From contig VRMN01000011.1 of the NCBI GenBank assembly GCA_008690995.1, positions 496,001 to 560,000 on the forward strand: 64,000 bases of DNA. Reading direction: 5' to 3'. This document shows positions 1 through 20,513 of the stretch, piece by piece. Position 1 is the first letter of the stretch. Every line of letters starts with the position of its first letter. The position numbers were made by a program, and so were the translations under genes. The notes beneath the pieces are model-generated. The model searched no databases. It was not told the origin of the DNA and saw only the letters and a program-made list of their open reading frames with translations. Source of the stretch: Porphyridium purpureum (taxonomy: Eukaryota).

Positions 1-3000
1 GAGTTTGGCGACATCACGCTGCACCGGCGTCCGACCCGCGATTGGCTTCGTGACGCGAGACATGAGCTTGTCCGGACGCACCAATGCAAACTCACTCTCG
101 TCAAGTTCCGGTTCGCGCCAAGCACCTTTGACATTTCGCAGCAAGAAGGGCAGGCGCGGGCCCAGCAACAACAGAGCACCATTTGCATTCGCTTCCCTAT
201 GTCTTGGCAACTTTCCGCACACCAGCACGGGTCGCTTATGTACATACCACCTAAACTTCAAGCCCAGAACACTAGCACGACTCTTCCTCCATTTCGACCT
301 GTCGAGGAGACCAAGCTCAAAGTTTTTCTTGACAGACATTTGCACACCTTCCCTAGACATGCAACGCGCCCTGCGCGAAAAAATAAATTCCGTGTCCGGG
401 CCAAGTCCAGTGGCAAACGAGTGAGGGGCGTCCAGTATGCGATCCGGCGTGGAATTAGACCCTTTGCTTCTCACGTCCTGCTTCTTTCTCTTCTTCCTAA
501 CATTCGAATCTTCCTCATCAGCCTTTCTCGGCGACTTATGACTTCCATCATAATGCTCGCGGTGGGCCGCGCACAAAATGCTTGACCCATCCTGCAACAG
601 AAAGCACTTGGCTGCGAAAAGACAACGCCTATGAAACGATTTGCGGCACGCGCCGAGTAGACATCCAATCGTCGCGCCGCGCTCGTGACAATGATGGCAT
701 TTGAGTCGCCGGCCGCGTCTATATGCAGCTATGACGTTTGTCAGCTCCTCACCAGCGTCGTCTTCACTACCAGCGTCTCCAAGATCCACGGTGCACACTT
801 CTGGCGCGAGAGCGGCGCAGTTGTAGTGTACAAAGATTGGCGGTTTGCCCACTTCTAAACGGTACGGGCCCACCAAGTCCTCTGCGGCAATGCTCCTCTC
901 TCTGGGAGTCATCGGCGAGGCCGCCGGGCAAAGTGCACACGAGCGCCGTTCAACAGGAACCTCAATGTTCACTATCGAGTCTGGGTCAATTAGTGAAGTT
1001 GACTTGATGCGTTTCTTGCTACTTGAACTGATCAATACATGATCATCCGCCAACTTTTCCCTCGTCGATGGAGACGTGGAACTTTCAGGGCGCGACAGAG
1101 CAGCCGCTAGCGGACTCGCAAGCTCCTGGCTACGACCCAACTCGAGCCGGGGTTTGTGAGATGTCAAGGCTCCACTGAACGCGGGTGCTTGTCGTTTCCA
1201 GTGTCCCTGCATTTCTGAAAAAGCCTTCGTGACGTGCTGATGCTTTCCATGAAGCACAAAGTCTTCGTCATCGTCGTCGTCGCTTTCAGAGTTAATATGA
1301 TTCTCCTCGGACGCACGAAGAGAATTCAAAGGATGAAAAGAGTCGTTGTTTCTCACAGGCAGCTTTGCCTTTGTCGGCGAAGTAAGAATCTCTGCATCAT
1401 TAAAAAAGTCTCGAGGTTCCTTGACATGCTCACGAACCCGCCGCGCTTTGTTGACGGGAGCCAAAGCATCGCGAGGAAGAGCTGGCTCTGAAGCTGTCGA
1501 TTGTCTGCAAATAATCTCTTTCGGCTTCAGAAATATGTTTGCTTCGTCTGCGCTCCCTGGAGGCGGCAGGGGCGCAAAAGAAGTACCTTCTCGACCGAGT
1601 TGCCTTGAACCAGGGATCGGTGCCCTTCCTGCATCAGGGACTGATGAGCATACTGGCAAACCGGAGGACGCCAAAACCACTTCTTCATATTCTGTCCCTG
1701 ACGAAGAAGAAAGACAGGGTGTTGCCTTGCCAGTTTCAAGAGCAATTCCTCTCCCTGCGCCTCCTCGGCTTGCAGTTGCCACGTCTTGGACAGAGGTTGA
1801 AAGACTTATTGATCGACAGCTTCTGGGCGCATTTGGTAGTTGCAGAGGGCTAATCTTGCGCCTAGATGTTAATTTGGCCTGGTCTCTACGTGCCTTCGAT
1901 TCCGGGACCGTCGGCTCCGTTTCGAGCTCGCGATGGGGTTCGCTTGCGGCCGACATAGCAGCGCGAAAACCCGCTGGTTTCGCTTTCCGTACTTTAGTGC
2001 CTGCACGCGACTGGGATTGCGGTACTGGCTGCGGAAGAGAGAGTGCTGGTGCGGCAGGCAACGGCGAAGACTTATGGTCGGCGCGCACCAGCGAGCTCAC
2101 ACTTGCAGCAGGCTTCAGACGCCCTTCATCCAAAGCCTCGTCCTCTTTTGCGAGCTGTGGGCTCACACACCCGTCTTCATCAGTGCTACCCACACCATGC
2201 CGTTCTCTGATTCGTGCGTGGCGGCTGTCGTGTACCGCATCACGCCTGCTCACCCTTGACGAATCAGGCTCCGCCTTTGCTCTTGAAACGCATGAGGAAA
2301 GGGCTGACGTGGGCTTCAGCTTAAGCCTACTTCGGAGCTGTTCTTTCGATATCCGAAGCCTCGACGACGCACCCACGTTCCTTGATTTTCCAGCGTGCTT
2401 TGTAAGACTGCCGGCGAAGGGTGGTCGCGTCCTTCCTGTTCGCTGTGATGGTGTGCTTTGCATCGCGCTAGACGGCATTGCAGCCGCAGCGTGCCCGCCG
2501 TATGTTTGCGCATACTCGGCGGCTGGGTATTGATCGACAGTCTGGAAAGACGGGTTCGCGTCGTGAGCCATACTTTGCATCTGCGCGTTGTAGTACGGAT
2601 ATACCGGCGCGCCGGCTACGTCATAAGGTCTGAAATTGTTGGATGCGGGTGCCCCCGTGCCTGGCGGCGCAACACTTGGACTCACGAAACTCTCTGTTCC
2701 ATCCATCGCGTTGAATGAAAAGGCTGGTGCACCATGTGGGAAGCCCATGTACGCCATACTGCTTGCTCCATGCGGCGTCATAACATACGACGCAGTTCTC
2801 GTGGCATACGGAGCCATCGCGGGCGCATACCCCGCATACGCCACGCTGCCAGTGAAGCGCGGAGCATGCGGCGGCAGCGCATGTGATCCGGTCGGTGCAT
2901 ATACCGAGTGCGTGCCGCCTGGCGCATACGCGGGCGGCGCATTCCACATGTACGATTGCTGCGTTCCAGCACTGTGCGCCACCGTATGCGGCTCGCGCCG

Positions 3001-3093
3001 CTGCTGGTACTTCTCCTTGAGCATCCGCCATTTCAGCTGCACGGGATCGTCTTCCTCCTCGTCCGCGCGCTCATGCATTGCATATGGCTCCAT
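1..3093 (-). CDS. Large nuclear protein with an extended PHD (C2HC pre-PHD + zf-HC5HC2H) zinc finger; runs off the left edge (>1030 aa)
   Basis: Absent from the ORF track because it has no stop in the window. Hand translation from ATG 3093 gives MEPYAMHERADEEEDDPVQLKW... About 940-560 reads CALC...FVHYNCAALAPEV...RGRRLKCHHCHERGATIGCLLGACRKSFHRRC...ILCAAH, the ePHD pattern. The + ORFs at 5, 845, 1346 and 2636 are all its antisense shadow frame. Confidence 0.8.
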   Translation of the reverse strand, partial: MEPYAMHERADEEEDDPVQLKWRMLKEKYQQRREPHTVAHSAGTQQSYMWNAPPAYAPGGTHSVYAPTGSHALPPHAPRFTGSVAYAGYAPAMAPYATRTASYVMTPHGASSMAYMGFPHGAPAFSFNAMDGTESFVSPSVAPPGTGAPASNNFRPYDVAGAPVYPYYNAQMQSMAHDANPSFQTVDQYPAAEYAQTYGGHAAAAMPSSAMQSTPSQRTGRTRPPFAGSLTKHAGKSRNVGASSRLRISKEQLRSRLKLKPTSALSSCVSRAKAEPDSSRVSRRDAVHDSRHARIRERHGVGSTDEDGCVSPQLAKEDEALDEGRLKPAASVSSLVRADHKSSPLPAAPALSLPQPVPQSQSRAGTKVRKAKPAGFRAAMSAASEPHRELETEPTVPESKARRDQAKLTSRRKISPLQLPNAPRSCRSISLSTSVQDVATASRGGAGRGIALETGKATPCLSSSSGTEYEEVVLASSGLPVCSSVPDAGRAPIPGSRQLGREGTSFAPLPPPGSADEANIFLKPKEIICRQSTASEPALPRDALAPVNKARRVREHVKEPRDFFNDAEILTSPTKAKLPVRNNDSFHPLNSLRASEENHINSESDDDDDEDFVLHGKHQHVTKAFSEMQGHWKRQAPAFSGALTSHKPRLELGRSQELASPLAAALSRPESSTSPSTREKLADDHVLISSSSKKRIKSTSLIDPDSIVNIEVPVERRSCALCPAASPMTPRERSIAAEDLVGPYRLEVGKPPIFVHYNCAALAPEVCTVDLGDAGSEDDAGEELTNVIAAYRRGRRLKCHHCHERGATIGCLLGACRKSFHRRCLFAAKCFLLQDGSSILCAAHREHYDGSHKSPRKADEEDSNVRKKRKKQDVRSKGSNSTPDRILDAPHSFATGLGPDTEFIFSRRARCMSREGVQMSVKKNFELGLLDRSKWRKSRASVLGLKFRWYVHKRPVLVCGKLPRHREANANGALLLLGPRLPFLLRNVKGAWREPELDESEFALVRPDKLMSRVTKPIAGRTPVQRDVAKL

Positions 3094-3310
3094 GCTTCCC
3101 GGCCATGCATTCGGACGTTCTTGGCGCAGATACGCACAGACAGATACTCACACCGCACCCCTCAGCTCCGGCTCCAGCACAACAAACATGCATATAACCA
3201 TCTCCCCCTTCTCTCTCCCTCTCTTCTTCCCTTCACCGAGCCCGAGAGGAAAAAAAAAGTCCCGCCAAAAACTTGCGAGTGGACCAGATGAGTGTACAGT
3301 TGGTTGTTCT

Positions 3311-4118
3311 CTTTAAATTCTCGCACGCTTGATGATGACAAGCGCACGAGCTCGGATGACACAACCCTTCTCAGATGACCGAACCCCAGCAACACGACGC
3401 ACACGGCACAGAGAACACAACCACACGACGCACACAACACAGACGACGAATACCCGGGGCGTGGAAAATCCAACGTATAGGGCCTCTACTATTGCCTTTC
3501 GCGTCGGCACAGACAGCACCGGTCTCGACAGGGGCAGGGTGTCGTAACGGACAAAGCCGCCGTCTGCCTTCAGTGCTCCAAGAGCACCGAAACCCCCCAG
3601 ACACGATGTGCTGCTGGCTCTGCTACACAGGCTCAGCAAAAGGCCCCACGTCTTCCGACGACCACGCCCAGGCACCCGACACCAAAGAACAACTCTTCCT
3701 TTATTCTCTGTGTCGTACTCCCTTGCCTCTTCTTCTTCCGCTCTAAAGAAAATCCGGGGAACCGCACAGGCCCGCGCCCATTATATACCCCGCCGTCCTT
3801 GCTGTCCTTGACGCGGAAGGGAGAAATTATTTCTCCCAAAGGCTGGGCTTTCCTCCGTTCGTTCCACAGAACGAAGCCACAGCCAGCCACGTCAGCAAGC
3901 GGCTCAATGGGTGCCGGCCGGCCGCCAAGCGGCTCCTGCTTCCCTCGGACACGCGACTCCGGCTCCTCGGGGCGAAAGACAACAATGCACAAAACCAGAG
4001 GTACAGGGTAAAAAACCACGCGGGCGAAAAAGCCCCTGTACCTCAAAGAATTCCGAGACGCCGTACCTCTAGGTGTACACCCAGGGCGTCTCTCGGACCG
4101 GAACACTTTTAATCCATG
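3311..4118 (-). repeat. 3' LTR of element A (808 bp)
   Basis: Matches 14735-15543 except for about 4 substitutions and 1 indel seen by eye. The pol stop codon (4109) lies inside it. Confidence 0.95.
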
Positions 4119-5997
4119 CTCCTCCTTCCGATCTGAGGGACGCGTAACATGTTCCAACACCTGATGTGACCTTCCGGAAACAAAGGCTTTGTCATCAAGT
4201 CGGACACGTTTTCTCCCGTCCTCACATACTCCAATGTCACCAACTTCTGCTTCTCGCAAATTTGGTGTATCCACGCCAAGTCCGTGGCTCTGGTTACTGC
4301 CATGTGATGCAACTTTGGCGAATATCCCATCTCGACCGCACGGAGAACAACTTGACTATCACAAAGCAGGGTCAACGCATAATCCCCCTCCTGCACGCTT
4401 CGAAGAAACGACAATGCCGGAAACAAAGATAACTGCACCGTTTCTTCCAGAGCGGCCATCTCAGACTCAGAGGTCGAAGAGCTAACAAAGCGTTGCCTTC
4501 TGGAGCTCCAATCGACCAGATACTTGTTTCCACCCGCGACCAAGTACGTCACTCTTCCAGACGTTGACTTGCGCGTTTCCGGGCATCCAGCAAAGTCGGC
4601 ATCAGCATAGCCCAAGACGCTTACGTCACCGACCTTCAATGACGTCATCCGCAAATACTCAAGTGGCTCACGAGGAACCTTCAAGTATTGCATGACGCGA
4701 ACCAGGAGTCTCTCAGCTGCGACGTTCCAGCTATCCACATACCGAGCCACCACTCCAACTGCGTAGGAGATATCCGGTCTGACCGTCCTGGCCAACCACA
4801 GCAGCCTCCCAACATGCTCGCGTATTTTCAGATGCCCATGTTCGACTTGAACATCCAATACAGCGTCAGCATTCATCTTCTCGCCTGGTGACTTCACTGC
4901 TCGCAGCACCTGCCCAAGCTCTTCTTCAAATTCCTTCACCACCAAGGTTTGGTAGTGATCATGATCCAACGAAAACCGTGTCGCCGACTCCGAGATCATG
5001 AGACCTAGGAACCTTAACGGGGCTCCTTCCGAGAGGACTTCTGGCTCCTTCTCAATGAGGAACTCTGACCTCAACTCTCGAAATATCTCACCCCGATCCT
5101 TCTCGGCACACGCGAGCAGGCCATCGTCGACATACAAGGCCAAGAGTGCAACAGATGCACTTCCCGCCATCTTTTTCACGTATACGTTCTTCTCGCCGTG
5201 AATCAAATCCCACCCGAACTTTTGAAGTCTTCTGCGGGCATCGATGGAAAAGTCAGACCCGCTTCTTGGTAAGCCATAAAGCGCCCTCCTTAAGCGAACG
5301 ACAAGTCCATCACCTCCTCCTGGAACGTGACGGGGCAACATGGCAAACGTCGGTGGTCCTGACAAGTCAGCGTGTAAGTACGCCGACGTCACATCGAACG
5401 ACACGATTTTCAATCCCAGGATCGCGGCCAAAGCTATCAACATTCTGATTGCAGACAGGCCCGCGGGCACCTCATAGTCAAACACATCCTGAGTGACCTT
5501 CCCTGAGGCATCCCAAATCCTATTTCCACCAGCAACAAGCCGACACTTGACCTTGCGAAACTCCTCCGGAAGCTCAGCGAACTTCAATCCGAATATAAAG
5601 TGTGTCCGCACAAATCGTGCGCCTGGGACCTTGAGAGCTTCTTCCCTTGAAATAGGTTGCTCATCCCATACCTTGAATCGAATCATCAAGTCCACTTCTT
5701 TTTGCATGGCTTCTCTTCCAGCCGAAGAAGCCAGAGCTTGGCTCGTCTGCAACAAAGTTGTCAAGTTCAATTGCGGTGTTTCTGGAGCAACTCCTGCGCG
5801 TTGCTTCCAATTTTCCTCCGAGAGGCCCATATTATGGGCCCGGGCTCGCACATCCTTTCCGTTTCTTGAATTGCGGAACACTGCCTTGTATTCTTGCAGA
5901 GTTCTTTCCCACTTCCCCCAGCCAAAGAGCCGTAAGCCATCCATGATGGCCTGATCCTCTTCCCGGCTCCAAGCTACACTGGGTTTTCGTTTCCCCC
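4109..5997 (-). CDS. pol: Element A pol, 3' part: Myb/SANT-like domain, Copia-type RT and RNase H (cut off from the 5' part by element C)
   Basis: Motifs KCRLVAGG, DVTSAYLHADL, LRRALYGL, LYVDD, RPDISYAV, GYADADFAG, STSG, SSSTSESE and SDLMTKPL are the Ty1/Copia RT-RNaseH series. The N-terminal segment WSREED..GL..FG.G.W is Myb-like. Confidence 0.93.
4119..4129 (-). promoter_or_regulatory. Polypurine tract of element A (GGAAGGAGGAG)
   Basis: Abuts the 3' LTR. The identical 11-mer abuts the 3' LTR of B. Confidence 0.85.
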
Positions 5998-6001
5998 TTC
6001 T

Positions 6002-6293
6002 TGTCACAAACGGAGCTTCTTTTCTTTACTTCTTCTTCTCTCCTCCTCTACCTACTCTCTTCTTCCTAGCCTTTTTTCTTCGTTCGGCTGCCGCTCGCTC
6101 TGTTTTATACCCGCCTTCCGGCGCCGCAACGGCTTGCCCGGCGGGTTCAGCCCTCGGAATAACCCAATCCCGCGGCCCTCAACATAACTCAGCTGTACCA
6201 CACGGTACACCCACAGCTGTACTTTCAGTACACTTAGGGACTGTACCTCTGCGTACTCGCTGTACTGAGACCTGCATCAGGTCGCTCGCGACA
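6002..6293 (-). repeat. 3' LTR of element C
   Basis: TGTCAC...GCGACA, repeated at 11937-12228. Purine-rich GGGAAGTGTGGGA lies immediately upstream on the minus strand (PPT). Confidence 0.95.
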
Positions 6294-6819
6294 TCCCACA
6301 CTTCCCGCTTATCCACAGCGACCATTGCGATAGCGTGTTCTAAGCCCACGCGCCGCATGCATAGCAGCCGTTCCCGTGCCGCTCAACAGGTTCAAGCACA
6401 ATGAGCTGAGATCGAGCGGACGAAGTACAGTGTAAGCTGACAGGGTACAGTGCCAGCAACAGGGCCAAAAAAATAAGGTGGCCGGTGCCGCTCACAAGTG
6501 ACGCCCACTGACAAGACCCCGTACAGGCTGCCATCCCCCTCCCCCGCTAACCTTAAAGGAAAGGTGCGCTGTTACGGCTCTGCCCAATGTCACCCCGGGG
6601 AATTACCCTAGCCACGGATCCCCAGCATTTCACAGGGGCAGTTTTCTCTAATCAGGGAGTGCCTAAGATCCTCTTCAATTCTCGTTTGCCAAACTGCCGA
6701 AATTTAGAGTATATACACCCCCAAATATGGACTCAGGTACAGTATTACTGTACTTCACTGTACACAGACTGTACTTCATTTTGTTCTTTATCATTCGTTC
6801 TACCGTCTTGCTGCGGGCA

Positions 6820-6956
6820 CGGCTCCTTCTTTACCGTCCAGCCATGGACACAGCTCCTTCTTTAATGTCCAGCAACGGACACAGCTCCTTCTTTATAGTC
6901 CAGCAACGGACCCAGCTCCTTCTTTACCGTCCAGCCACGGACACTCCATCTTTATT
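6820..6956. repeat. About 4.5 tandem copies of a 31-bp unit (CAGCTCCTTCTTTAccGTCCAGCcACGGACA) in the 3' untranslated region of element C
   Basis: Units start at about 6820, 6851, 6882, 6913 and 6944, with no spacers. Confidence 0.85.
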
Positions 6957-7002
6957 CGAACATTTTTTTTTGAGAGCAGCGACGGCCGATAGCCACCCAG
7001 CG

Positions 7003-10000
7003 TCAAACACCTTCTGCCATGTCTCGGTACGCGGCTACCAGCATGGGCGGGAGCGTCTTCTCAGCCTCCCATGTGTCGCCTCGCTTCCCCATACCCCGCC
7101 ATCTCACCTTGTACTCGCGGCCTCCACCCGCAGCCCGATCTTCCACAATTGCCTCCACCACCCAACTTGCATCTCCTCCAGCGAACACGTTCGTGCCGGC
7201 CATGTCTACCACGTCCGGGTCTGCCTTGTGCAAGCGGTTCACATGCACGAGCTGGCCATGGAGCTCTGCGTCATCTCGGCCGTTTGCGCTGACCACGACT
7301 GCGTGAACCCCGTTCCGCTTTGTGATGCGGAAAGGTCCGAGCCACGGCTTTGTCAGCTTGCGACCCTGCCTCGTACTTGGGCACCACACGTATACGATGT
7401 CGCCCTCGGCAAACGTTTCCTTGTTCCGATGAATGTTTCTGTCATAGTACCTTGCAAACCTCTCGGCGTTCTCCGACATCTTATTCCCGGCGAGCCGATA
7501 GGCGCGCGCCAGCTGTGCGGAGATATCTTGCGGTTGCTGGCCCCCTTCAACCGCTCGCGGTCCGGCCATGCTTGCCCAGTCCTTGGCTGGCGACCCAAAC
7601 ATCATTTCGTACGGCGAGAAGCCGGTGGCTGCGTGGCGCGACGTGTTGTACGCGTAGGTTACAACGGACAGCCACCTATCCCAGTCGCGCGAGCTTGCAC
7701 TGACGTACGCCGACAGCATCTTGCACAGGGTCGCATTGAAGCGCTCCACCCTTCCGTTCGTCTGCGGGTGGTAGGCTGTCGTCATGAGCCTCCGGATTCC
7801 GAGTCTGGCGCAAAGCGACGTGATCACCTCACCGACAAAGTTTGAGCCCCGGTCGGACAAGATGGACTCCGGCGGGCCAAAGACAGTCAACCACGTCTGC
7901 AGGAAACTCCGCGCCACGGTCTCTGCCTTCTCGTCCGGGAGCGCCACGGCAACCGCCCATCGCGTCCAAGCATCCATCATGACGAGCACCTTGATATTTC
8001 CCGTTCGCGTCTCCGGACTGATGGTGAGGATGTCCATGCCTACAATTTCAAAGCGTCTGGACGCCGAGTACTGCACCATCGCCGCGTTCCGGCGGGGTGG
8101 TGGTGCCTTGCGCGCTATGCACTCGTGGCAGCACCGAACGAACTTCCGAACGTCTTCTGTCCACCCGGGCCACCACCACTGCGCGTCGGCTATCCTCGCC
8201 GCCGTCCTCGCCGTCCCCATGTGAGCTGACAGCGGGGCTCCGTGATAGACGTTGAGAACTGCCGACACAAGCGCGTCAGGGACCACCCGCCTGGGCATGT
8301 CTTTCAGCAACGCAAACACAATCCCGTCTTCGTCCACGATATACTCAGGGAAGGAGTACTTTGGCGCGGGTCCTGATAGGTTCTTGAGCTCCGCGCAGAT
8401 TTGCTCGTCCTCTGCGTACGCTGCTCTGAGCTCGTCGTCCGTGGGCACAGCGTATAGCGCCCCACTGTCTTGCGTGTCCCGTACCTCCCGGACCTCTTCT
8501 TCCGTGCCAGTGTCCAGAGGAGTACGCGATAGCGCATCGGCCACGATATTCGCTGCGCCTGGCTTGTGCTTCACGTCAAACTCGAAATCTTGCACGCGCA
8601 TGATCCACCTTGCCGTCCGACCCCGTGGCTCTTTCTGGCGAAGCAGCCACAGCAGCGCCGAGTGATCCGTCACGAGAATGAACTTCTTGCCGAACAGATA
8701 GTGCCTGAACTTTTCCATGGATAGTATGGCACCCAAGCACTCTTGCTCCGTGACGCTGTAGTTCAGCTCTGCGCCTCGGAATGCCCTTGAGTAAAAGGCC
8801 ACCGGGCGCCGCTGGTCCCCTTGAAGCAAGACCGCGCCAATGCCCACCTGGCTCGCGTCGACTTCAAGAACCATCTCGGCGGCCGGATTGAATGCAACCA
8901 GGACTGCGCTACCGTCGTCCATCGGATCACCTAGCGCATGGCGTAGGTCTATGAACGCGGCGCGCTGGTCGTCCCCGAATCTGCTCGCCCACTCTGCGCC
9001 ACCGGCCGTCTTCCGGTGGAAGCCACCTTTCTTGTCCGTCAATCCGAGCCCAGTCAGCGCTCGCCTCAGCGGGAGGGCACGCTCCTCGAAGTTCGGTATG
9101 AAGTTACGAAACCAGCCGACCAGTCCCAGGAACCGCTGCAGGTCCTTCGCTTCTTCTGGCTCTGGCCACTCCAGGATTGCCCGCGTCTTATCTACCCCAG
9201 GCCGCAAACCTTGCGGGCCAATGCGATGGCCCAGAAACTGTACTTCTGCCAGAGCAATCTTGCACTTGCGGGCCGACAGTGTAAGTCCCGACGCCGCGAA
9301 CCTTCGCAAGATCTGACGAAGTCCTTCCACATGTTCCTCGAAGGTCTCATGTCCCACTGTCAGATCGTCAATGTAGATCTGCGCGTGTGCATGGCGCATA
9401 GGGCCCAAAATCCGGTTGTTGAGTCGCTGAAACGTTGGCGGGCTATTGCAGCAGCCCTGCGGCAGACGCGTGTATTCAAATAGCCCCTCACGTGTGATCA
9501 TGGCAGTCAAATGCATGCTTTCTGGCGCAAGGGGCACCTGGAAAAACCCGTCCTTGAGATCGAGAGCGCTCTTCCATCGGCGCCTCGAAAGCCAGTCGAG
9601 CATCTCCCCAACGTCTGGGATTGGGTACCTGTCCTTGATTGTGATTGCATTGAGCGGGCGAAAGTCGGTAGTCATCCGATACGATCCATCTGGTTTCCGG
9701 ATCAGTACGTTGGCTGCTGCACACTCCGACGTGCTCGGCTGCAGCACTCCCTTAGCGACAAGGGCTTCGACCAGGCTGCGCTCAGCCTCGTTCTCGGCCT
9801 CTGAGCGCCTGCGCACTTTGGCCACCAGAGGGCGCTGGCCCGGTTCGACAGTGATGGTGTGTTCCACCAGGTCCGTTAATCCCATGGACGGCCTGAACAG
9901 CACCCACGCCTCAGCTAGGACGTCGCCGACTCGTTTGCGCTGCTCGGGCTCGAGATGCCCAAGCTCGATGGCCGCGGCGTTGCGCAGGGCTTCCTCTTTC

Positions 10001-10611
10001 TCGGCCGCGTGCTTCTGCTCCAGCTGGGCGATTCGACGATCAATCTCGCCCGGTTCTTCAAGATGACCGATGTGTTCTGGGCCCGGCAGACCACTCACTT
10101 GCTCGAACGGTAGAGAACCTCCACGCTTGAAGAACACAGCTTGACCTGGCAGCACGGCCGCGACTTCTCGAACCTGGAAGTCCCAGCCGATTAAGAGATC
10201 TGTCTTGAGGTGTTCCGCCACTCGGACCGTCTCGCACGGAAAAACGAAAGACCCGAGATGCAGATCCAGAAACCCAACGCTGACTCTGCCCAAGGAGGCG
10301 CCGTCCGGCCCTCGCGCTCCCCAACTTGACGGCTGCGTTTTCAAGCCGAGCCGGTCAGCCACGCTCGGGCTCACCCATGTTGAGTTTGCGCCCGTGTCCA
10401 GAACTGCCAGTGCGACCACTGCCTGGCCACATGCGGTGAGCTTCACCCGCAACGTCGGACTGTTGTCCGCACGCACGGCCAGCTCCGCGTCGCCGTCTTG
10501 TTCCTTGGCGTACGCCGCGCCTTGCAACTCTGCCTCACCTGAGGCATCGCCCGGCTCCCACCATTCCATGCAGGGGGCAGCTACTGCTTGCTGCCCCACT
10601 GCCCGTTTTTT
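7003..10611 (-). CDS. pol: Element C pol: aspartic protease, RT, RNase H, integrase (HHCC, DDE, GPF) and C-terminal chromodomain; probably expressed by -1 frameshift
   Basis: Motifs LDTGA; DFRPLN, LDLKDGFFQ, PQGCCNSP, YIDD; DAS..GIGAVL, TDH, ADALSR; SDRG..F, PQTNGRVERFN; WLGPF; WVVEAIVEDR...EYKVRWRG....DTWE. Confidence 0.95.
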   Translation of the reverse strand, partial: KKRAVGQQAVAAPCMEWWEPGDASGEAELQGAAYAKEQDGDAELAVRADNSPTLRVKLTACGQAVVALAVLDTGANSTWVSPSVADRLGLKTQPSSWGARGPDGASLGRVSVGFLDLHLGSFVFPCETVRVAEHLKTDLLIGWDFQVREVAAVLPGQAVFFKRGGSLPFEQVSGLPGPEHIGHLEEPGEIDRRIAQLEQKHAAEKEEALRNAAAIELGHLEPEQRKRVGDVLAEAWVLFRPSMGLTDLVEHTITVEPGQRPLVAKVRRRSEAENEAERSLVEALVAKGVLQPSTSECAAANVLIRKPDGSYRMTTDFRPLNAITIKDRYPIPDVGEMLDWLSRRRWKSALDLKDGFFQVPLAPESMHLTAMITREGLFEYTRLPQGCCNSPPTFQRLNNRILGPMRHAHAQIYIDDLTVGHETFEEHVEGLRQILRRFAASGLTLSARKCKIALAEVQFLGHRIGPQGLRPGVDKTRAILEWPEPEEAKDLQRFLGLVGWFRNFIPNFEERALPLRRALTGLGLTDKKGGFHRKTAGGAEWASRFGDDQRAAFIDLRHALGDPMDDGSAVLVAFNPAAEMVLEVDASQVGIGAVLLQGDQRRPVAFYSRAFRGAELNYSVTEQECLGAILSMEKFRHYLFGKKFILVTDHSALLWLLRQKEPRGRTARWIMRVQDFEFDVKHKPGAANIVADALSRTPLDTGTEEEVREVRDTQDSGALYAVPTDDELRAAYAEDEQICAELKNLSGPAPKYSFPEYIVDEDGIVFALLKDMPRRVVPDALVSAVLNVYHGAPLSAHMGTARTAARIADAQWWWPGWTEDVRKFVRCCHECIARKAPPPRRNAAMVQYSASRRFEIVGMDILTISPETRTGNIKVLVMMDAWTRWAVAVALPDEKAETVARSFLQTWLTVFGPPESILSDRGSNFVGEVITSLCARLGIRRLMTTAYHPQTNGRVERFNATLCKMLSAYVSASSRDWDRWLSVVTYAYNTSRHAATGFSPYEMMFGSPAKDWASMAGPRAVEGGQQPQDISAQLARAYRLAGNKMSENAERFARYYDRNIHRNKETFAEGDIVYVWCPSTRQGRKLTKPWLGPFRITKRNGVHAVVVSANGRDDAELHGQLVHVNRLHKADPDVVDMAGTNVFAGGDASWVVEAIVEDRAAGGGREYKVRWRGMGKRGDTWEAEKTLPPMLVAAYRDMAEGV
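10574..10611 (-). promoter_or_regulatory. -1 frameshift signal of element C: A_AAA_AAC, 7-nt spacer, 8-bp stem GGGGCAGC/GCTGCCCC
   Basis: The heptamer is in the gag frame at 10605-10611, and pol is in the -1 frame and open across it. Confidence 0.8.
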
Positions 10612-11879
10612 GGTCCGTGGCTCAAGCCACCGTCCGGATACGGCGCACGTGGTGCTCCACCTTGGCCCGCGGGGCGATGCACTCCCCCATCGGCCCGTGG
10701 CCATCCATTGCGGCAATCCCTCTTCAAGTGTCCAAGTTCGCCGCACTGCCAGCACTGCGGCTGTCCGGGCAAAGCAGTCGGAAGGGCTTGGCGCTTGGCC
10801 TGTGGCCCGAAGCTCTCGACCTGGTACACATCCTCTGCGTACAGGCCGTAGTCACGACCGCGCTTCTGGATCGTCGTGCCCGGGACCTCGCCTATGCGGC
10901 CCACTCTCTCGCGGCCAAGCGGGCGTTGCTGGCCAAACGGAGGAAGCGGGCGACTCGGTAGACCCTTCAAACCATCTTCACCGACGTGGTCCACCAGAGC
11001 TGAGCGCAGCTTGGTGAACGAGACGCTCACGCCGATCATGCGGACCGTGTTCTTCAAGAACGCGGAGTCCATGGCTTCGATCAACACGTCCTTCTTGTCC
11101 TCGTCGTCCATCTTGAGCCCGTCAGCCTTGGTCTCCAGGTCGTTCAGAAAGACACTCAAGCTGGCTTTCCCCGGTTGGAACTTCATGCGGCGGAGCTCGG
11201 CTTTCAAAGCCTGGCGGTGCTCGACATTGAAAAACATGGACTCCAGTGCCTTCCACACACGGTTCGCTGCGCCGGGCCCTGCCGCATCGACATCTTTGAT
11301 CACGGCTTGGTACCTTGACACCGCGGGCCCACCAAAGCAAGCGCTGATGTGCTCCGCGACATTGTCCCTTGCGAGGCCAAGTGTGTCCGCGTGCGACTCC
11401 CAGCAGGTCCGCGACGCGAAGAAATGAGCGTCACCTGGGGCCTTGATAAGAACTTGAGCACTGCGGACCGCCTCGCGAAAGGTTGCTGCGAGCTTCAACT
11501 GCTCCTCCCAGAACGACCGATCCATGGTACGGCCCGAGGTCTGCGCCGAGTTGCGGCTGTGCGCCTGGGCCTCCAGTTCAGCAACGCGAGCGCGAAGGGC
11601 CATCACTTCGGCTCCGCCCGGTGCAGCTAGGTCTCCAACCGGGACAACGGACTCTGCGTCGGCTGCGGCTTCCAGGTGACCTGGCGTCCCCTGCTCATTG
11701 TCGACAGCTTCACCCTGGTGCTCCACGACAGGCCCGTCTTCTGGCGCTGGGCCCCCGGCACGAGCGGCCCCTGCTTCGATGATCGCGGATCCGCTGCGTG
11801 GCTCCCCAAGTCCTGCCACAACTGCTGCCTCGCGAGGCCCACCTGCCTCTCCAACTCCTGCCCCACGCCCACGCGCCAT
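10581..11879 (-). CDS. gag: Element C Gag with CCHC zinc knuckle
   Basis: CWQCGELGHLKRDC. First ATG at 11879, just downstream of the 5' LTR. Confidence 0.88.
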   Translation of the reverse strand: MARGRGAGVGEAGGPREAAVVAGLGEPRSGSAIIEAGAARAGGPAPEDGPVVEHQGEAVDNEQGTPGHLEAAADAESVVPVGDLAAPGGAEVMALRARVAELEAQAHSRNSAQTSGRTMDRSFWEEQLKLAATFREAVRSAQVLIKAPGDAHFFASRTCWESHADTLGLARDNVAEHISACFGGPAVSRYQAVIKDVDAAGPGAANRVWKALESMFFNVEHRQALKAELRRMKFQPGKASLSVFLNDLETKADGLKMDDEDKKDVLIEAMDSAFLKNTVRMIGVSVSFTKLRSALVDHVGEDGLKGLPSRPLPPFGQQRPLGRERVGRIGEVPGTTIQKRGRDYGLYAEDVYQVESFGPQAKRQALPTALPGQPQCWQCGELGHLKRDCRNGWPRADGGVHRPAGQGGAPRAPYPDGGLSHGPKNGQWGSKQ

Positions 11880-11936
11880 CCTATCCCACTCCCAACCCCA
11901 CACTTCCTCGCTCCCACACGACCAATTTGCAAATTA

Positions 11937-12228
11937 TGTCACAAACGGAGCTTCTTTTCTTTACTTCTTCTTCTCTCCTCCTCTACCTACTCTCTTCTTC
12001 CTAGCCTTTTTTCTTCGTTCGGCTGCCGCTCGCTCTGTTTTATACCCGCCTTCCGGCGCCGCAACGGCTTGCCCGGCGGGTTCAGCCCTCGGAATAACCC
12101 AATCCCGCGGCCCTCAACATAACTCAGCTGTACCACACGGTACACCCACAGCTGTACTTTCAGTACACTTAGGGACTGTACCTCTGCGTACTCGCTGTAC
12201 TGAGACCTGCATCAGGTCGCTCGCGACA
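11937..12228 (-). repeat. 5' LTR of element C, with TATA-like GGTATAAAAC at 12037-12046
   Basis: Direct repeat of 6002-6293. Confidence 0.95.
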
Positions 12229-13765
12229 TTCTTCCAATAGGTAGGGGAACGTCCTCCTCCAAGTTCCCGGACACACGCGCCTCGGCCGTATTCGTAGGCA
12301 ACACCATAGTCTCTTGACTATCCGGTTCTTCCTGCCTAGAGTGAAAGTCGATTTCACCCTCACGTGCCGAGACCTCCTCGTCATCCTTTGTTTCCAAAAT
12401 CCGCATTGGAAACACTTCAGGGAACGCCTTGAAGTCCTGAGTGCGAGTCAGCCTCGGTGCCGCACTCGTCCACTCCTCCTGAGGAAGGACCCAGATTGCC
12501 AGCGGATGCTCCGCAACTCCAACAAGGACTCCAATCTTTCCTCTGGGTGCATACTTGTTCTCAGGTTGATCATTCTTGAACACCACCTTGCATCCAAATG
12601 GTACTGCTACCTTCCCCCGCTTCCATCTCTCACCGTACCTCATTTCATACGGAGACTTCCCAGACCTCTTGTCTGGGTGCAGCCGATTGAACATGAAGAC
12701 GAAATGCTGAGCGGCATGCAAAAACCACCGCTTTCCCAGCCCAGACTGCAGGAGATTTGCTCGTACCCCCTGATTCAAAGTATGATGGAAACGTTCCTGT
12801 TCAGCGTGGCTATTTGGTCTATGTGGGACGCCAATCTCATGCTTCACGAGATTCTCCCGTACCAAATTGCTCACATTTCCCCTGAACTCGTTTCCATCAT
12901 CTGTCCTCAGTACCTTTGGCCATCCTCGCCCGGCTTGCACGCTTGTCCAAGCTTCAGCAACCGCCGTATGCGTTTTGGCTCTCAATCCTGCCAGTGTGGC
13001 CCACCTCGTCGCTCTATCGATGTGCGTCAGTATGTACTTTGCTCCATCGGTGGCTTCCACGTTACGTCCGGGCTCCACCAGGTCGATCCCAACTTCGTCA
13101 TTGAACGACAAAGTGGACAAGTCCTTCTCCAGCCTTCTTGCTGGTCGGCTCTTGATCTTGGCCACAACACACGTCTCACAATCATCCCGCATCGGCATGT
13201 GAGTCAACGCATGTTCCATCCCGGCCATCTTTCCTTCGACCTCTTCACTGGCACTCTCCTCTTCTCCATCGCACGCTTGATTTCCGCTTGACTCGGAAAG
13301 AGCGTCCACGACATTCACCATCGCACAATCTTCCACATTTTTAAGTCCCAAGTCCATCGAACCCCTCTGCCAATCAATCCTCGGGTTCACGCGACTCAGC
13401 CAGTCCCACCCGAGAATTGCATCCATTTGCAGAGGCCCGACATAAAACTTGACCGGCCCTTTCCAGAACCCAAGATCAACATGCTGCAACACCGGGCCAT
13501 GCACTAAGACACTTTGCCCACCCGCAAGCTTGACCATTCCGTTCTCGCGCCCTTCAAATCTGCCGACAAAGCGAGATCCAAGAAAATTGTGCGATGCTCC
13601 GCTGTCCACCAGAAATTGGACAGACTCGCCATCTAAAGTTCCACGCTTGTAGAGCAACCTCGACGCCGCATCAGCGCGCCAGACCTCACCTACAAAGCCC
13701 ATCCCGGGAGGTTCCGTTCCCCTCGAGTGCACCTCCCAACTTCTCCCTCGAGGTTTTAGTTTTCC
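12229..13765 (-). CDS. pol: Element A pol, 5' part: Gypsy-type aspartic protease and Copia-type integrase
   Basis: FLVDSGASHNF...DAILGWDWL..VNPRIDW; HALTH..DCETC; GIDLV, RTDDGNEF, QERFH; PFGCKV...KYAPRGKIGVLVG. Removing C and one TTCT restores the frame: ...VPLPIGR|RGKRKPSVAWSREED. Confidence 0.93.
13704..13765 (-). promoter_or_regulatory. -1 frameshift signal of element A: G_GAA_AAC, 5-nt spacer, H-type pseudoknot
   Basis: Heptamer 13759-13765 directly before the gag TAA. Stem 1 is CCTCGAG/CTCGAGG and stem 2 is GGGAGGT/ACCTCCC. Confidence 0.8.
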
Positions 13766-14712
13766 GGGCCTCCCGCCAAGTGCCCATTCCGCTTTGGGCA
13801 ATTGGGTTTGATGTGGCCGCGCTGCCCGCAATGGTAGCATCTGACTTTGCCCACGTCCGCATGCTTGCGCTTCTCCGGCTGGCGTTTCTCCACGACGCCC
13901 AAATCCATTGGCGCCGTCCCGGCATACGACGAGCTGTTCCGGTAGTTTGGACTAGAGGCGCCATGAAAAGCCTCCCTCATGTCTCCTCCAAACCTACCAA
14001 CCTGCTCCGCAGCCAACGCCGCCCTCAGCGACTCTTCCAGCGTCTTCGTGTCCTGACGCGCCACCTCAAGGCGAAGCTTCTCCTTCAGGCCGAGAGTGAA
14101 GATGGTGTTGAGCTCGGCATCCGTCACACTATCCACTGACAGGGCCACCATCCTCAGGCGCTGCTCAAACTCAGCAACAGTCATCTTGCCCTGCTTCAGC
14201 TGATACAAGTTCGTTCGAGCAGTCAGGTATGCCTGCGGCGGCTCAAATGCCGTCCGCACGAAGTTCGCGAACGCATTCCAACCGGACTCGGCCAGTGCCA
14301 TCCTCTGTTCCTCAGGGCGAGCTGCCCACAACAGCGCGGCATCCTTCTCAAAGAAGCGCGACGCTACGATCACCTTCTGAGACTCCAGCGCTCCAGCTGG
14401 CATGCACATGTCCAAGTCTTGCTTCATCCTCGACAACCACTCGTTCACAACGAGTTTGTCGCGCTGTCCGTCGTATTTCCTCAAGCTGCGTCCAATCAGC
14501 GATGCAACGGTCCTTTCCGTTTCGCCGGGACCAGCTGACACAGATGCCTGATGCATCACATTCTGCAGCATCTCCTGCAAGAGGCGATTTCCCTCCTGCA
14601 GCTGCACAATCATCATTTCTTGTCCTCCGATACGAGCATGAAGCTGGTTGAAAGCTTCAATCCACGACGCGCCGCCCTGCAGGCCCTGCACGTCCATTCC
14701 CTCAGAATCCAT
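13756..14712 (-). CDS. gag: Element A Gag (Retrotrans_gag/Ty3-type capsid, PMDLG motif, CCHC knuckle), 318 aa
   Basis: LRKYDG, LYQLKQGKMTVAEF, FTLGLK, APMDLG, CYHCGQRGHIKPNC. Confidence 0.92.
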   Translation of the reverse strand: MDSEGMDVQGLQGGASWIEAFNQLHARIGGQEMMIVQLQEGNRLLQEMLQNVMHQASVSAGPGETERTVASLIGRSLRKYDGQRDKLVVNEWLSRMKQDLDMCMPAGALESQKVIVASRFFEKDAALLWAARPEEQRMALAESGWNAFANFVRTAFEPPQAYLTARTNLYQLKQGKMTVAEFEQRLRMVALSVDSVTDAELNTIFTLGLKEKLRLEVARQDTKTLEESLRAALAAEQVGRFGGDMREAFHGASSPNYRNSSSYAGTAPMDLGVVEKRQPEKRKHADVGKVRCYHCGQRGHIKPNCPKRNGHLAGGPEN

Positions 14713-14722
14713 CTTCGCCGAT

Positions 14723-14734
14723 GCGATGATACCA
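14723..14734 (-). promoter_or_regulatory. Primer-binding site of A (TGGTATCATCGC), probably for initiator tRNA-Met
   Basis: Abuts the 5' LTR. The first 8 nt match the TGGTATCA iMet-type PBS, and the same 12-mer occurs in B. Confidence 0.75.
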
Positions 14735-15543
14735 CTTTAAATTCTCGCACGCTTGATGATGACAAGCGCACGAGCCCGGATGACACAACCCTTCTCAGAT
14801 GACCGAACCCCAGCAACACGACGCACACGGCACAGAGAACACAACCACACGACGCACACAACACAGACGACGAATACCCGGGGCGTGGAAAATCCAACGT
14901 ATAGGGCCTCTACTATTGCCTTTCGCGTCGGCACAGACAGCACCGGTCTCGACAGGGGCAGGGTGTCGTAACGGACAAAGCCGCCGTCTGCCTTCAGTGC
15001 TCCAAGAGCACCGAAACCCCCCAGACACGATGTGCTGCTGGCTCTGCTACACAGGCTCAGCAAAAGGCCCCACGCCTTCCGACGACCACGCCCAGGCACC
15101 CGACACCAAAGAACAACTCTTCCTTTATTCTCTGTGTCGTACTCCCTTGCCTCTACTTCTTCCGCTCTAAAGAAAATCCGGGGAACCGCACAGGCCCGCG
15201 CCCATTATATACCCCGCCGTCCTTGCTGTCCTTGACGCGGAAGGGAGAAATTATTTCTCCCAAAAGGCTGGGCTTTCCTCCGTTCGTTCCACGGAACGAA
15301 GCCACAGCCAGCCACGTCAGCAAGCGGCTCAATGGGTGCCGGCCGGCCGCCAAGCGGCTCCTGCTTCCCTCGGACACGCGACTCCGGCTCCTCGGGGCGA
15401 AAGACAACAATGCACAAAACCAGAGGTACAGGGTAAAAAACCACGCGGGCGAAAAAGCCCCTGTACCTCAAAGAATTCCGAGACGCCGTACCTCTAGGTG
15501 TACACCCAGGGCGTCTCTCGGACCGGAACACTTTTAATCCATG
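14735..15543 (-). repeat. 5' LTR of element A (809 bp), with TATA-like GGTATATAAT at 15204-15213
   Basis: Direct repeat of 3311-4118. Confidence 0.95.
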
Positions 15544-15549
15544 GTTCTC

Positions 15550-16346
15550 CTTGGAATTTCTCCCTTTCTGCTTTGTAACCGAATCAACAAAACCGGATCG
15601 CTTCACCGATAACAGGAACTGGAAACCGCCACACCCCGGAAACTGACAAACCGACGACGAACCGACACACCGAAACGAACGGAAGGACAAGCAGGACAAT
15701 CAGAGAAAAGTGGCTAGAAAGGAAGAGAGGACAGAAAATTCAACTTATAGGGGACTACGAGAGGGAGTGGACCGGTCTTGACAAGTGAAGGGTGATGGAA
15801 GGTACGTTTAAACCCCAGCTGCCTTTTTAAAAACACTCCAGACCGATATCCGCTCGCACAACACGCTAGCGTGCCTCTCCCGCAAATCCAACCCAAGTCT
15901 TCCAACGACTGCCTCAATCCAACTAACCAATTCTCTTTTTATTCTATTTGCCCTTACCTCTTCTTCTACCTTGACCTGGAAATTCCTGGGAACCAGCTTG
16001 CCCCTTCGTCCTTTTATACCCTTCGTCCTTGCTCTTTCCAGCAAGGACGGGAGAACAAATTTCTCCAACAGGACGAATTTCCACCACAGGTTTTGATTCG
16101 TTCCACAACTCGCAACCACAGCCGGCCACGTATCCGGAAAATGGCCGGGAGGGCGCGTCAAGAACGAATCCAGAAGCTTCGGCCGGCCTTTGACCTTTGC
16201 ACAAGGCCACACAAAACGACAATGACAAACATTTCGCAGGTCCGAGATCATCACGCTTCTCGAACAATCTTTCATCATAGAACTTTCTAGGGTTTTGTAC
16301 TCAAAACCCTACGGCGTCTCTCGGGGCGGAACCCTAAAATTCCACG
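15550..16346 (-). repeat. 3' LTR of element B
   Basis: Direct repeat of 20514-21310. The pol stop (16334) lies inside it. Confidence 0.95.
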
Positions 16347-19300
16347 CTCCTCCTTCCGGTCTGAGGGACGCGTAACTTCTCCCAGCACTTAATGTGGCCC
16401 TCCGGAAATAAGGCCTTGGTCATTAAGTCCGCCACATTTTCGTCCGTCTTCACAAATGCCAGTTTCACAAGTTTCTGCTTTTCGCACACCTGATGCAACC
16501 AGGCCAAATCTGTTGCTCGGGTTATCGCCATATGATGCAACTTTGGCGAGTACCCCATCTCTATTGCTCGCATCACAGCTTGATTGTCACACATCAAAAT
16601 CACCGAGAACTCTCCGTCACGTATACTTCGCAAGAAAGACAATGCAGGAAACAACGAGAGTTGCACAGTTTCCTCTAGGGCGGCCAGCTCCGACTCTGAA
16701 GTCGACGAGCTCACGAAACGCTGCTTTCTTGAAGACCAATCCACTAGGTACTTGTAATCTCCAGCAACTAAGTACGTTGCTCTTCCAGAAGTCGACACAC
16801 GACTCTCTGGACAACCAGCAAAGTCAGCATCCGTGTATCCAAGAATGTTCACCCCTCTGATGCCTTCCTTGAGATTCCCCAACACGTGATACTCCAATGC
16901 TTCCCGAGGTGTTTTCAAATACTGCACGACTCGTACGAGCAGCCTTTCTGCTGCCACATTCCACTTGTCAACGTACCGGGCAATCATACCGACTGCATAC
17001 GCAATATCAGGTCGAACCGTTCTGGCGAGCCACATCAGCCTCCCGACGTGTTCTCTTACTTTCAAAGTCTTCCAGATGACTTGATAATTCAGAACTTCCT
17101 CGCCATCTAGCTTCTCAGATGGTGACTTCACGGCACGCAATACGCGTCTAATATCCTGCTCAAATTCCCGAATGACCACATCTTGATACTCTTGATTCGC
17201 CAAACTCACGCTCCCATTTTTGAGGGAAATGCTCGTCCCCAGGAATCTCAAGGATCCTCCTTCCGTCAATAGTTCTGGTGCTTTTTCTATGAGAAACTCT
17301 TGTTTCAATTCTTCGATGATTCCTGGGCGTTCCTCCTCTCGACAGGCTAATAGACCATCATCCACGTACAGAGCCAACAACGCAACTGACGAACTTGCAG
17401 CATTTCTCCGGACGTACACATTCTTTTCACCATGCACGAGCTTCCACTGGAACTTTTGCAATCTCCTCCGAGCATCTTGTGAGAAATCCGAGCCGCTCCT
17501 GGGCAAGCCATACAGCGCCTTTCTCAGCCTGACTACTGTGTCTTTTGAATCACAAATTTCACGCGGTAAGTATGCAAACGTAGGTGGCCCAGACAGGTCC
17601 GCATGGAGGTATGCCGAGCTGATGTCGAAACTAACAATCTGAAGGCCCAGAATTGCAGCCACAGCTATTATCATTCGGATAGCTGACAAACCAGCAGGCG
17701 TCTCATAATCAAAAATGTCATTCGTCGCAGCTCCATCGGACCCCCATATCCTGTTTCCCCCGGCCACCAAGCGGCACTTCACCTTGCGAAATTCTTCCGG
17801 CATCTCAGCAAATTTCAGACCGAAAATGAAATGTGTGCGTACGAAACGAGCACCAGGTTGCCTCCGGGCCTCCTCCAGCGTCAAGGGATTCTCATCCCAT
17901 ACCCCAAATCTCAGCATGGATTTGACTTCTTTTTCCATCGCGGCTCGTCCTTGCTCAGACGCTAACGCCGCTCCAGTTTTCAGCAAAGTCGTTAAGTTCA
18001 ACTGTGGGATCGTCACTGGACCACCCGTGCCTGCTGCCCGTTCCTCGTCAACCACTCTCACTTTCAATGCCTCGATCTCTTTCTCAAGCTCCGCTTCTCG
18101 AGCTCTGAGAGCATCGATACGACGATCCAAGTCCTGCACCGCTTCAACCGCGGATGGTTCGTCCACTTCTGGCAACTCTTCCTGCTGGCTCAGGCTCACC
18201 ATCTCTCGTTCAATTCCCTTTAAAGGGAACTCATGGGTAAATGCCTTAAAATCCTGAGTGCGAATTACTTTTGGGGTCTCACTCGTCCAGTCATCCCGAG
18301 GAAGCACCAAAATTGCCATCGGATGCTCTCCAACGCCGACGAGAATGCCAACTTTTCCTCGCGGTGCATACTTATTGTCAGGCTGATCATCTTTGTAGAC
18401 CACCTTGCACCCGAATGGCAAACTAAGATTTCTCGGCGACCATTTTTCACCACGTCGTAATTCAAACGGCGTCTTTCCAGACTTCCTGCCCACGTGAAGT
18501 CTATTCGTCATGAACGCAAAATGCTGCGCGGCGTGCATGAACCAACGCTTCCCGAGTCCGGCCTGCACAAGATTCGCACGGATTCCCTGATTCAGCGTGT
18601 GGTGAAACCGCTCCTGTTCAGCATGACTGTTTGGCCTGTACGGAATCCCCACCTCGTGCTTTATGAGGTGTTCACGCACCAGTCTCCCCACATCTCCCTT
18701 GAACTCATTCCCATCATCCGTTCGCAAAACCTTCGGCCATCCTCTCCCGGCTTGCACACTTTTCCAAGCGTCCGCAACCGCCGTGTGGGTTTTCGCACGT
18801 AGCCCCGCCAATGTCACCCATCCTGTGGCTCTGTCGATATGCGTCAAAATAAACTTTGAACCATCTACCGACTTCACATTTCGCCCAGGCTCCACCAAGT
18901 CAATTCCGACTTCATCATTGAATGACAATGCACTGACATCTTTCTCCAGCCTTCGGGCCGGGCGTCGCTTTATCTTCGCCACGACACACGTCTCACAGTC
19001 TCTTTGCATAGGCATGTGAGTCAACTCGTGTTCCGAAGCAGCCACGCTCTGATTTTTCCCGTCAAGCTCGGGAACCACTTCTTCAACATTTTCCAACGTG
19101 CATATTTCCTTCCCCTCGGGCCTCGTTTCCATCAGTCCCTTCTGCCAATCAATCTTAGGATTCACCATCTTGAGCCATTTCCACCCTAAGATGGCATCCA
19201 TACGAATGGGACCGATATAAAACTCGACGTTCCCTATCCAGAAACCGAGGTCCACCGCAAGCACAATGGGGCCGTGCACCTTCATTCTCTGTCCTCCCGC

Positions 19301-19546: not shown

Positions 19547-20484
19547 GGCTCTGGCGGACCACCTGCCAAGCGCTCCTTCAATTTAGGGCATTTGGGCTTA
19601 ATGTGTCCACGTTCTCCACAATGGTAACACTTCACTTTGGTCTTGCCAGACTTCCGCTTGTCCATGGCTCCCAAATCCATTGGTGCGCTACCAGAATGCG
19701 ACGAGAACGCCCTGCTATGAGTCGATGACGAGTTCTTGATCACTTGACTCATATCTCCTCCGAACTTTGCAACCTGCTCAGCTGCCAACGCAACTTTCAG
19801 TGATTCTTCCAAGGTCCTTGTGTCCTGACGGGCCACCTCAATACGCAGTTTCTCCTTCAAGCCCAGCGTGAAGATGGTGTTCAGTTCTGCATCTGTCACA
19901 TCTTCAACTGATAACGCTGTCATCCTGAGATTCTGCTCAAATTCTGCGACCGTCATTTTCCCTTGCTTCAACTGATACAGATTGGTGCGCGCTGTCAAAT
20001 GCGCCTGCGGCGGCTCAAACGCTGTGCGCACGAAGTTTGCGAACGCATCCCATCCGGCCTCTGCAAGGCCCTTTCTCTGCTCCTCCGGACGAGCTGCCCA
20101 AAGCAGCGCTGCGTCCCTCTCGAAAAAGCGACTTGCAACAATCACTTTCTGCGAGTCCAAAGCATCTGCGGGCATGCAGATATCCAGGTCGCTCTTCATT
20201 CGCATCAGCCATTCATTGACAACGAGCTTGTCACGCTGACCATCAAACTTTCTCAAACTGCGCCCAATTAACGCGGCCATGGCACGATCGTTGTCACCAG
20301 ACCCAGACGCCACGGTCTGCTGGCGCAACAAAACATGCATCATTTCATGGAGGTTACGATTCGCTTCCTGCACTTGTGCCATCATCATCTCCTGTCCCGC
20401 AATGCGCGCATGCAGCTGATTAGCTGCCTCAATCCATGCCGCATTCTCCTGCGGGACATTCATTTCCATTTCATGGCTTTCCAT
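19537..20484 (-). CDS. gag: Element B Gag (Ty3/Gypsy-type, PMDLG, CCHC)
   Basis: Close homolog of A Gag; CYHCGERGHIKPKC. First ATG at 20484. Confidence 0.92.
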   Translation of the reverse strand: MESHEMEMNVPQENAAWIEAANQLHARIAGQEMMMAQVQEANRNLHEMMHVLLRQQTVASGSGDNDRAMAALIGRSLRKFDGQRDKLVVNEWLMRMKSDLDICMPADALDSQKVIVASRFFERDAALLWAARPEEQRKGLAEAGWDAFANFVRTAFEPPQAHLTARTNLYQLKQGKMTVAEFEQNLRMTALSVEDVTDAELNTIFTLGLKEKLRIEVARQDTRTLEESLKVALAAEQVAKFGGDMSQVIKNSSSTHSRAFSSHSGSAPMDLGAMDKRKSGKTKVKCYHCGERGHIKPKCPKLKERLAGGPPEPEN

Positions 20485-20513
20485 TTTCTCCAAACAACCG
20501 GGCGATGATACCA

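Follow-up and report, generated by a model that had tools for sequence, protein, structure and literature searches.

To our knowledge, the LTR retrotransposons whose targeting is understood are guided either by host tethers or by domains that read histone marks. Chromoviruses, the CoDi-A Copia elements of diatoms and the Tudor-Gypsy elements of Ectocarpus are described as carrying an extra folded reader in the integrase tail (PMC2774666, PMC12477816), and the account of CoDi-A indicates that a chromodomain can occur in Copia (PMC2774666). Tf1, Ty1, Ty3 and Ty5 need a host DNA-binding factor; insertions of Tf1 are reported to cluster at -9 and +19 from Sap1 motifs (PMC5741268), and the C-terminal domains of the Ty3 integrase are reported to bind TFIIIB (bioRxiv 10.1101/2021.07.27.453949). 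Among non-LTR retroelements, R2 and R4/Dong encode an N-terminal Myb domain that is credited with site choice (PMC7998251), and in PIF/Harbinger a transposon-encoded SANT/Myb/trihelix protein is described as serving the DDE enzyme (PMC8616336).

Here we describe a Copia family of the red microalga Porphyridium purpureum (family A) with a predicted Myb-type domain in the putative integrase tail. Its added domain resembles those of the chromodomain and Tudor integrases in its predicted position but is a Myb helix-turn-helix and not a Royal-family histone reader, and targeting has been shown for chromodomains, whereas we infer it for the Myb domain of A. Like Tf1 with Sap1, Ty1, Ty3 and Ty5, family A is found upstream of genes, with a DNA motif nearby at short distances that recur between sites; unlike them, it itself encodes a fold of DNA-binding type. 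R2 and R4 insert by target-primed reverse transcription, and their rDNA or microsatellite sites are fixed, whereas A is an integrase-based LTR element found at dispersed sites, and PIF/Harbinger differs in being a DNA transposon with the Myb-like domain on a separate protein. As far as searched, no LTR element was known to extend its integrase by a Myb domain, and the fusion is new in kind: the accessible full-text literature held no report of a Myb/SANT domain in an LTR retrotransposon and no description of these Porphyridium families, and an earlier mention may exist in subscription journals or Repbase, which lay outside that scope. A survey of plant genomes reports that Copia elements had gained no domain (PMC9289625), although its supplements might list Myb matches.

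The window analyzed here is the whole stretch of 64,000 nucleotides, whose first 21 kb contain three LTR elements, nested or in tandem and all on the minus strand, and whose remainder consists of compact, mostly intron-poor host genes. The family A element occupies 3311-15543, between a 3' LTR of 808 bp (3311..4118) and a 5' LTR of 809 bp (14735..15543) that show 7 differences over 818 aligned columns, and is flanked by the TSD GTTCT (3306..3310 and 15544-15548, given on the plus strand). Its PBS lies at 14720-14734 and its gag frame, with Retrotrans_gag, Ty3_capsid and a zinc knuckle, at 13756..14736, in a frame different from that of pol. The first part of pol (12233..13951) encodes protease, integrase core, an SH3-like domain and an acidic linker, and a second part (4109..5755) encodes the RVT_2 reverse transcriptase (RT; Pfam RVT_2, E = 1.3e-16) and RNase H. 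Between A's integrase core and its Myb-type domain is inserted element C (6002..12228), a Gypsy element with a chromodomain (E = 1e-8), identical 292-bp TG..CA LTRs and a 4-bp TSD, TTCT. Element B (15550..21310), a member of a sister family that lacks the Myb domain, has 797-bp LTRs (15550-16346 and 20514-21310) and a 5-bp TSD, TTCTC, shifted by one base relative to that of A. The LTRs of A and B have unusual ends, CA..AG and CG..AG, respectively, and not TG..CA; their 5-bp TSDs are clean, PBS and PPT are directly adjacent, and loose ends of reads agree with their boundaries. In run X7, contig depth reaches ~150,000 within 3621-4241, part of A's LTR, and is ~800 over the Myb region.

A sequence-only reading of the window had placed, between the integrase core and RT of A, a peptide at 5828..5997 that would be in frame with the integrase once element C is removed and that B would lack. 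The peptide is encoded on the minus strand at this location, but its end was given 4 bases short: it runs from a first Arg at 6001-5999, through a first Trp at 5971-5969, to a final Met that ends at 5828. With element C and one copy of the 4-bp duplication left out, the pol frame of A is open for 1203 codons with zero stops, in agreement with that reading. The joined frame does not depend on this reconstruction alone, because 6,364 stranded RNA reads of run X24 skip 5997-12229 and link both sides of element C, contigs of runs X1, X3 and X7 likewise skip the element, and database copies such as P0004 continue uninterrupted across its position. Element C interrupts only this family A copy. Element B was found to have no Myb domain at the corresponding place and has a coiled-coil-like stretch instead (weak MAD match, E = 0.03). 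An X1 contig that joins 3305 to 21310 spans the empty site, so the A and B insertion is polymorphic and recent.

If the library follows the common convention, the RNA of run X24 is A's sense strand; its depth was ~3,000-24,000 on the internal part of A, 400-3,200 on that of B and 6-58 on that of C. Transcription of A so far above that of B or C, together with the general prevalence of Myb domains in transcription factors, would suit a domain that acts on the LTR promoter as a transcription or anti-silencing factor, within the integrase or after release from it. We consider such a role improbable, since the depths come from a single RNA run, are uncorrected for copy number and go with a higher DNA contig depth of A as well, the products of pol are usually scarce and packaged, and no activation domain was seen.

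The domain proper extends from the first Trp to the final Met (5828..5971, minus strand), with Ala instead of the third Trp, and is preceded by a basic arm (5972..6001, minus strand). Its assignment to the Myb/SANT type, first made by eye, was borne out by profile comparison and by structure prediction. As an isolated 79-aa stretch the peptide matches PF00249 with 28.0 bits (E = 2.3e-6) against a cut-off of 24.4, and a repeat of the comparison with the isolated domain gave 28.3 bits, whereas inside the 638-aa ORF the score is slightly below the cut-off (23.1 bits); all five rows of alignment A1 match the same profile, at E values up to 5. AF2 with a 5-row alignment predicts a three-helix fold (pLDDT 81.3), with helices at 13-26, 31-37 and 48-57 plus a short fourth. 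In Foldseek, this model superimposes on human TRF1 (1w0t) with an rmsd of 0.8 Å over 50 columns; all E values are above 0.1, and weak Foldseek E values are usual for domains this short. VIA gave Z scores of 8.1-8.4 for TRF1/TRF2 (best Z, 8.4), and the top structural matches of both tools are Myb/SANT domains. By sequence, the nearest solved relatives are TRF1 domains (E = 8e-4), and a profile of four families matches c-Myb, Tbf1 and TRF1 at E values of ~1e-6 or better. The single-sequence AF2 model (pLDDT 62.8) has three helices and no meaningful Foldseek match, and the ESM Atlas held no usable match for the domain. These profile matches and models confirm the prediction that positions 5828-6001 of the minus strand encode a Myb-type domain.

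Outside the window, the sole database match to the Myb region among 68 candidates was a P. purpureum Copia protein, 94% identical. The segment is kept in other copies of family A: the protein cluster has 17 members, 15 of them listed, and 12 of the 15 contain the whole domain, the other three being one with a half-domain, one consisting of Gag only and one that stops before the domain. Some contigs carry a deletion across it. A homologous domain is present at the same place in families D (P0027/P0079), E (P0022), F (P0023), K (P0251) and L (P0252/P0277), all from P. purpureum, and is lacking in five related families, namely B, G (P0024, MMETSP), H (P0025, Logan), I and J. Over pol, families D, E and F are ~29-32% identical to A, and the RT-RNase H regions of the Myb-bearing families are ~30-37% identical to that of A, with the domain still present. 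Families K and L, which came to light only once the profile had been made, match it at E = 9e-16 and 4e-10, respectively, and leave-one-out profiles recovered 6/6 Myb families (E = 8e-13 to 6e-5; best, 3e-17) and 0/5 of the Myb-less ones. The first Trp is present in 6/6 families and the second in 5/6 (Phe in L), and the position of the third Trp is occupied by Ala in 5/6 and by Leu in F.

A neutral passenger in a flexible linker, now decaying, would be expected to be missing from many relatives, as the domain is from 5 of the 11 families, to have diverged widely, as the between-family identity of only 17-41% may indicate, and to leave remnants such as the half-domain database copy and the contigs with deletions. 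We nevertheless regard it as very improbable. Although their RTs have diverged to the extent given above, all six families retain the core Trp, the acidic first helix, the third-helix pattern and one basic residue. This retention across families is the stronger evidence; among 12 copies of A the variable columns number 1/48 in the domain, 6/60 in the linker and 1/74 at the RT start, a comparison of low power in that the divergence among these copies is too low to prove selection on the domain.

In an RT tree of 20 rows, from which ten distant proteins were left out and which holds zero Gypsy or Bel/Pao rows, all 11 families fall on one branch (100/100), separate from 9 other Copia proteins. 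The presence of the domain implies at least 3 changes on this tree, A/B and the E-F-K-H group each holding both states, and such a patchy distribution indicates that the elements transpose without it. One old gain followed by several losses is the simplest reading; repeated gain or swapping is a possible alternative. The domain tree, of 55 columns and mostly unresolved, neither supports nor rejects a single origin (AU P = 0.066), and no donor emerged from it; capture from the host is plausible. The capture is old and not specific to family A, and the comparisons as a whole argue that the fusion is real, old and repeatedly retained, its function being inferred. Zero matches to the domain were obtained among ~70 distant Copia proteins, and it was found in none of the 5 loci (23-32% identity, six frames) returned by a metagenome scan with P0001. 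In a profile search of 1.84 billion proteins, multi-repeat cellular Myb proteins dominate the best 150 of 3,663 matches (E up to 0.001); the retroelements among these 150 are three Porphyridium polyproteins, the other 147 having no RT match, and single-domain fusions elsewhere could rank below them. The best single-domain cellular score belongs to P0111, a 211-aa metagenome protein with two Myb repeats and, as in the element domains, Ala for the third Trp.

Within pol, motif order places the domain ahead of RT, towards the integrase, in 6/6 families, as had been proposed for A: it lies 129-211 residues upstream of the K.RLVA motif, the first RT motif, and also precedes a hydrophobic motif with which the RT region begins (5756..5776 on the minus strand, common to A and B and echoed in other families). 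In family L the domain is upstream of a basic RRS.R..PP motif that also occurs in the linkers of the Myb-less families I, J and G. Processing of Ty1/Copia polyproteins separates integrase from RT immediately ahead of the RT start; on this basis the domain would be expected at the C-terminal end of the mature integrase, and the cleavage site of A is likely to be near the hydrophobic motif. Comparison across families indicates that the slot before RT is modular: it is occupied by Cys/His-rich stretches in F, G and H and by the coiled-coil-like stretch in B, and in distant Copia proteins a chromodomain (P0072, E = 2e-9) or a SET domain (P0076, E = 3e-11) lies just before RT. The Cys/His-rich stretches of P0023 (about 950-995), P0024 (about 225-270) and P0025 (about 310-360) have no Pfam match, and could possibly represent a new, shared zinc finger.

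Position, predicted fold and analogy with other integrase tails together lead us to favor a domain that works as an accessory tether, linking the integrase to target DNA or chromatin, a reading that we hold to be about evenly poised between right and wrong. The protease would cut after the domain, which would stay attached to the end of the mature integrase; in A, E, F and K, whose versions are basic, the arm and the third helix would contact DNA, and the acidic versions of D and L would contact protein or histones; and tethering in promoter-type intergenic regions would raise the efficiency of integration or sharpen site choice.

The composition of the domains is the basis for this division. 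The domain of A has 14-15 K+R against 7-8 D+E (pI 10.9), and those of A, E, F and K are all basic (pI 9.7-10.9) with a basic arm, whereas those of D and L are acidic (pI 4.4 and 4.7). Histone-binding SANT domains have an acidic surface and lack a basic DNA-binding face; the domain of A, being basic, does not fit that class, and D and L are acidic. Contact with DNA is thus plausible for the former four and contact with protein or histones for the latter two, and the arm at 5972..6001 could possibly be a minor-groove arm or a nuclear localization signal. In Myb domains, the acidic patch is reported to point away from the DNA and to be required for binding to chromatin (PMC2572630). The outward positions of the recognition helix differ in each of the six families, and this variation, together with the basic and acidic versions, implies that the families do not share a sequence code.

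The closest fold is that of TRF1, TRF2 and Tbf1 (Z 8.3; rmsd as given above), with which the domain of A has in common the single repeat, the basic arm and the G..G.G.W turn, and from which it differs in the Ala for the third Trp, a telobox recognition helix that is not kept and non-telomeric flanks. The sequence-only reading had offered two classes for the domain, telobox-like and SHAQKYF-like, and neither is borne out. The nearest cellular domains are of telobox type and end in LKDR(W/F)R, a helix that reads VRARAH in A and differs in the other five families too; TIGR01557, the SHAQKYF profile, matches 1/5 rows (best E = 0.057) and gives no match for the domain in the window. That the best sequence and structure matches are to TRF1, TRF2, Tbf1 and fungal telobox-type proteins could point to a reader of telobox kind by which integration is directed to telomere-type repeats, but with the altered helix, no repeat array or excess of TTAGGG at the window site (9 found versus 11.1 expected) and telomere-like runs in 0/6 flanks of A, this is extremely unlikely. 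The telomere repeat of this alga is described as not established (PMC3622300), which limits the telomere comparison.

The insertion in the window lies between divergently oriented genes, at a distance of 217 bp from the first ATG of a host gene with a PHD-like zinc finger (1..3093, minus strand) and ~640 bp from the next gene. A GTAC motif is present 14-17 bp from the insertion (3294..3297), and two more are on the opposite side (21324 and 21332). Flanks of further insertions were read by eye from the listed loose ends, single-contig or single-junction rows only; mixed-read consensus rows and apparent LTR or internal variants were left out. For family A, GTAC was found 14-26 bp away at 5/6 listed sites (start offsets of ~14-17 or 23, within 30 bp), compared with 10% of 30-mers in the window (P = 6e-5); without the window site the count is 4/5 (P = 5e-4), and counting a two-contig consensus row as two misses gives 5/8 (P = 4e-4). 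For family B, the motif was found at 2/4 listed sites, one of them the shared window site (P = 0.05), and A and B did not differ significantly in this tiny sample of listed loose-end rows (P = 0.5). The flanks show a preference for GTAC-bearing sequence, probably of promoter type. In the window, GTAC by itself has no excess outside genes (4.1 versus 4.0 per kb, by rough gene models), whereas CTGTAC/GTACAG has one (1.54 versus 0.45 per kb, P = 3e-4, by the same models) and may be regarded as a candidate promoter motif. Within 21316-64000, clusters of it lie 100-500 bp upstream of starts, at 34612-34669, 54865-54977 and 56635-56666.

The Myb-less family B shares both this preference and the window site, so the flanks do not tie the preference to the Myb domain. 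For the same reason, that B inserts at similar places without it, the domain is probably not the sole determinant of site choice, and the comparison with B suggests that a host factor may still be at work in that of A. Target features common to A and B would also be expected if the domain served the element's own DNA or complex, by binding cDNA ends or the LTR, stabilizing the intasome or aiding import through its basic arm. Recognition helices that differ among families, as family-specific binding to LTRs would predict, and the unusual LTR ends of A and B fit such a role as well, but B has similar ends and no domain, the acidic versions in D and L are a poor fit to DNA binding, and an import signal requires no folded three-helix domain. 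We consider this unlikely, though a real possibility. Our preferred reading, the accessory tether, could be extended to a Copia clade that reads DNA sequence by its integrase Myb domain and picks promoter sites without a host tether, its families having retuned the helix or switched to an acidic chromatin reader and so divided the safe sites among them; this extension is speculative and rather unlikely, and if true would make these elements the first LTR retrotransposons known to carry their own domain for targeting by DNA sequence. In this alga a natural comparison is at hand: six families have the domain and five do not, including A and B, which are young, transcribed and polymorphic. The comparison lends itself directly to asking whether integration can be guided by a DNA-binding fold that the integrase carries, a question also relevant to the engineering of targeted integrases.

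In the window, A and B stand in tandem at the same 6-bp site (15544-15549), one base apart, and LTR-LTR junctions with 4, 5, 15, 27 or 31 letters between them occur in reads. These arrangements point to repeated insertion of A and B into narrow hot spots. The database proteins P0019 and P0103 resemble tandem copies of B.

By the order PR-IN-RT-RH and an RVT_2 RT (E = 1e-16), family A belongs to Ty1/Copia, and its homologues are Copia polyproteins; the RTs of A and B are 72% identical. TG..CA LTR ends and a Copia-type Gag and protease, which are typical of Ty1/Copia without defining it, are absent from both: A and B, which encode gag and pol in separate frames (12233-14736 and 16334-20547), match the Retrotrans_gag, Ty3_capsid and Gypsy-type protease profiles and not those of Copia type. 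In A, B, E and F alike, a Copia-order IN-RT-RH is joined to Gypsy-type Gag and protease profiles, and a Gypsy/Copia chimera is possible from these profile matches; the Gag and protease motifs of D, I and L are of the usual Copia type. In element C, GTAC motifs abound in the LTR and 3' untranslated region (6190-6265, 6420-6450, 6735-6775 and 6814-6944), which also include a 31-bp tandem repeat of 4.2 copies.
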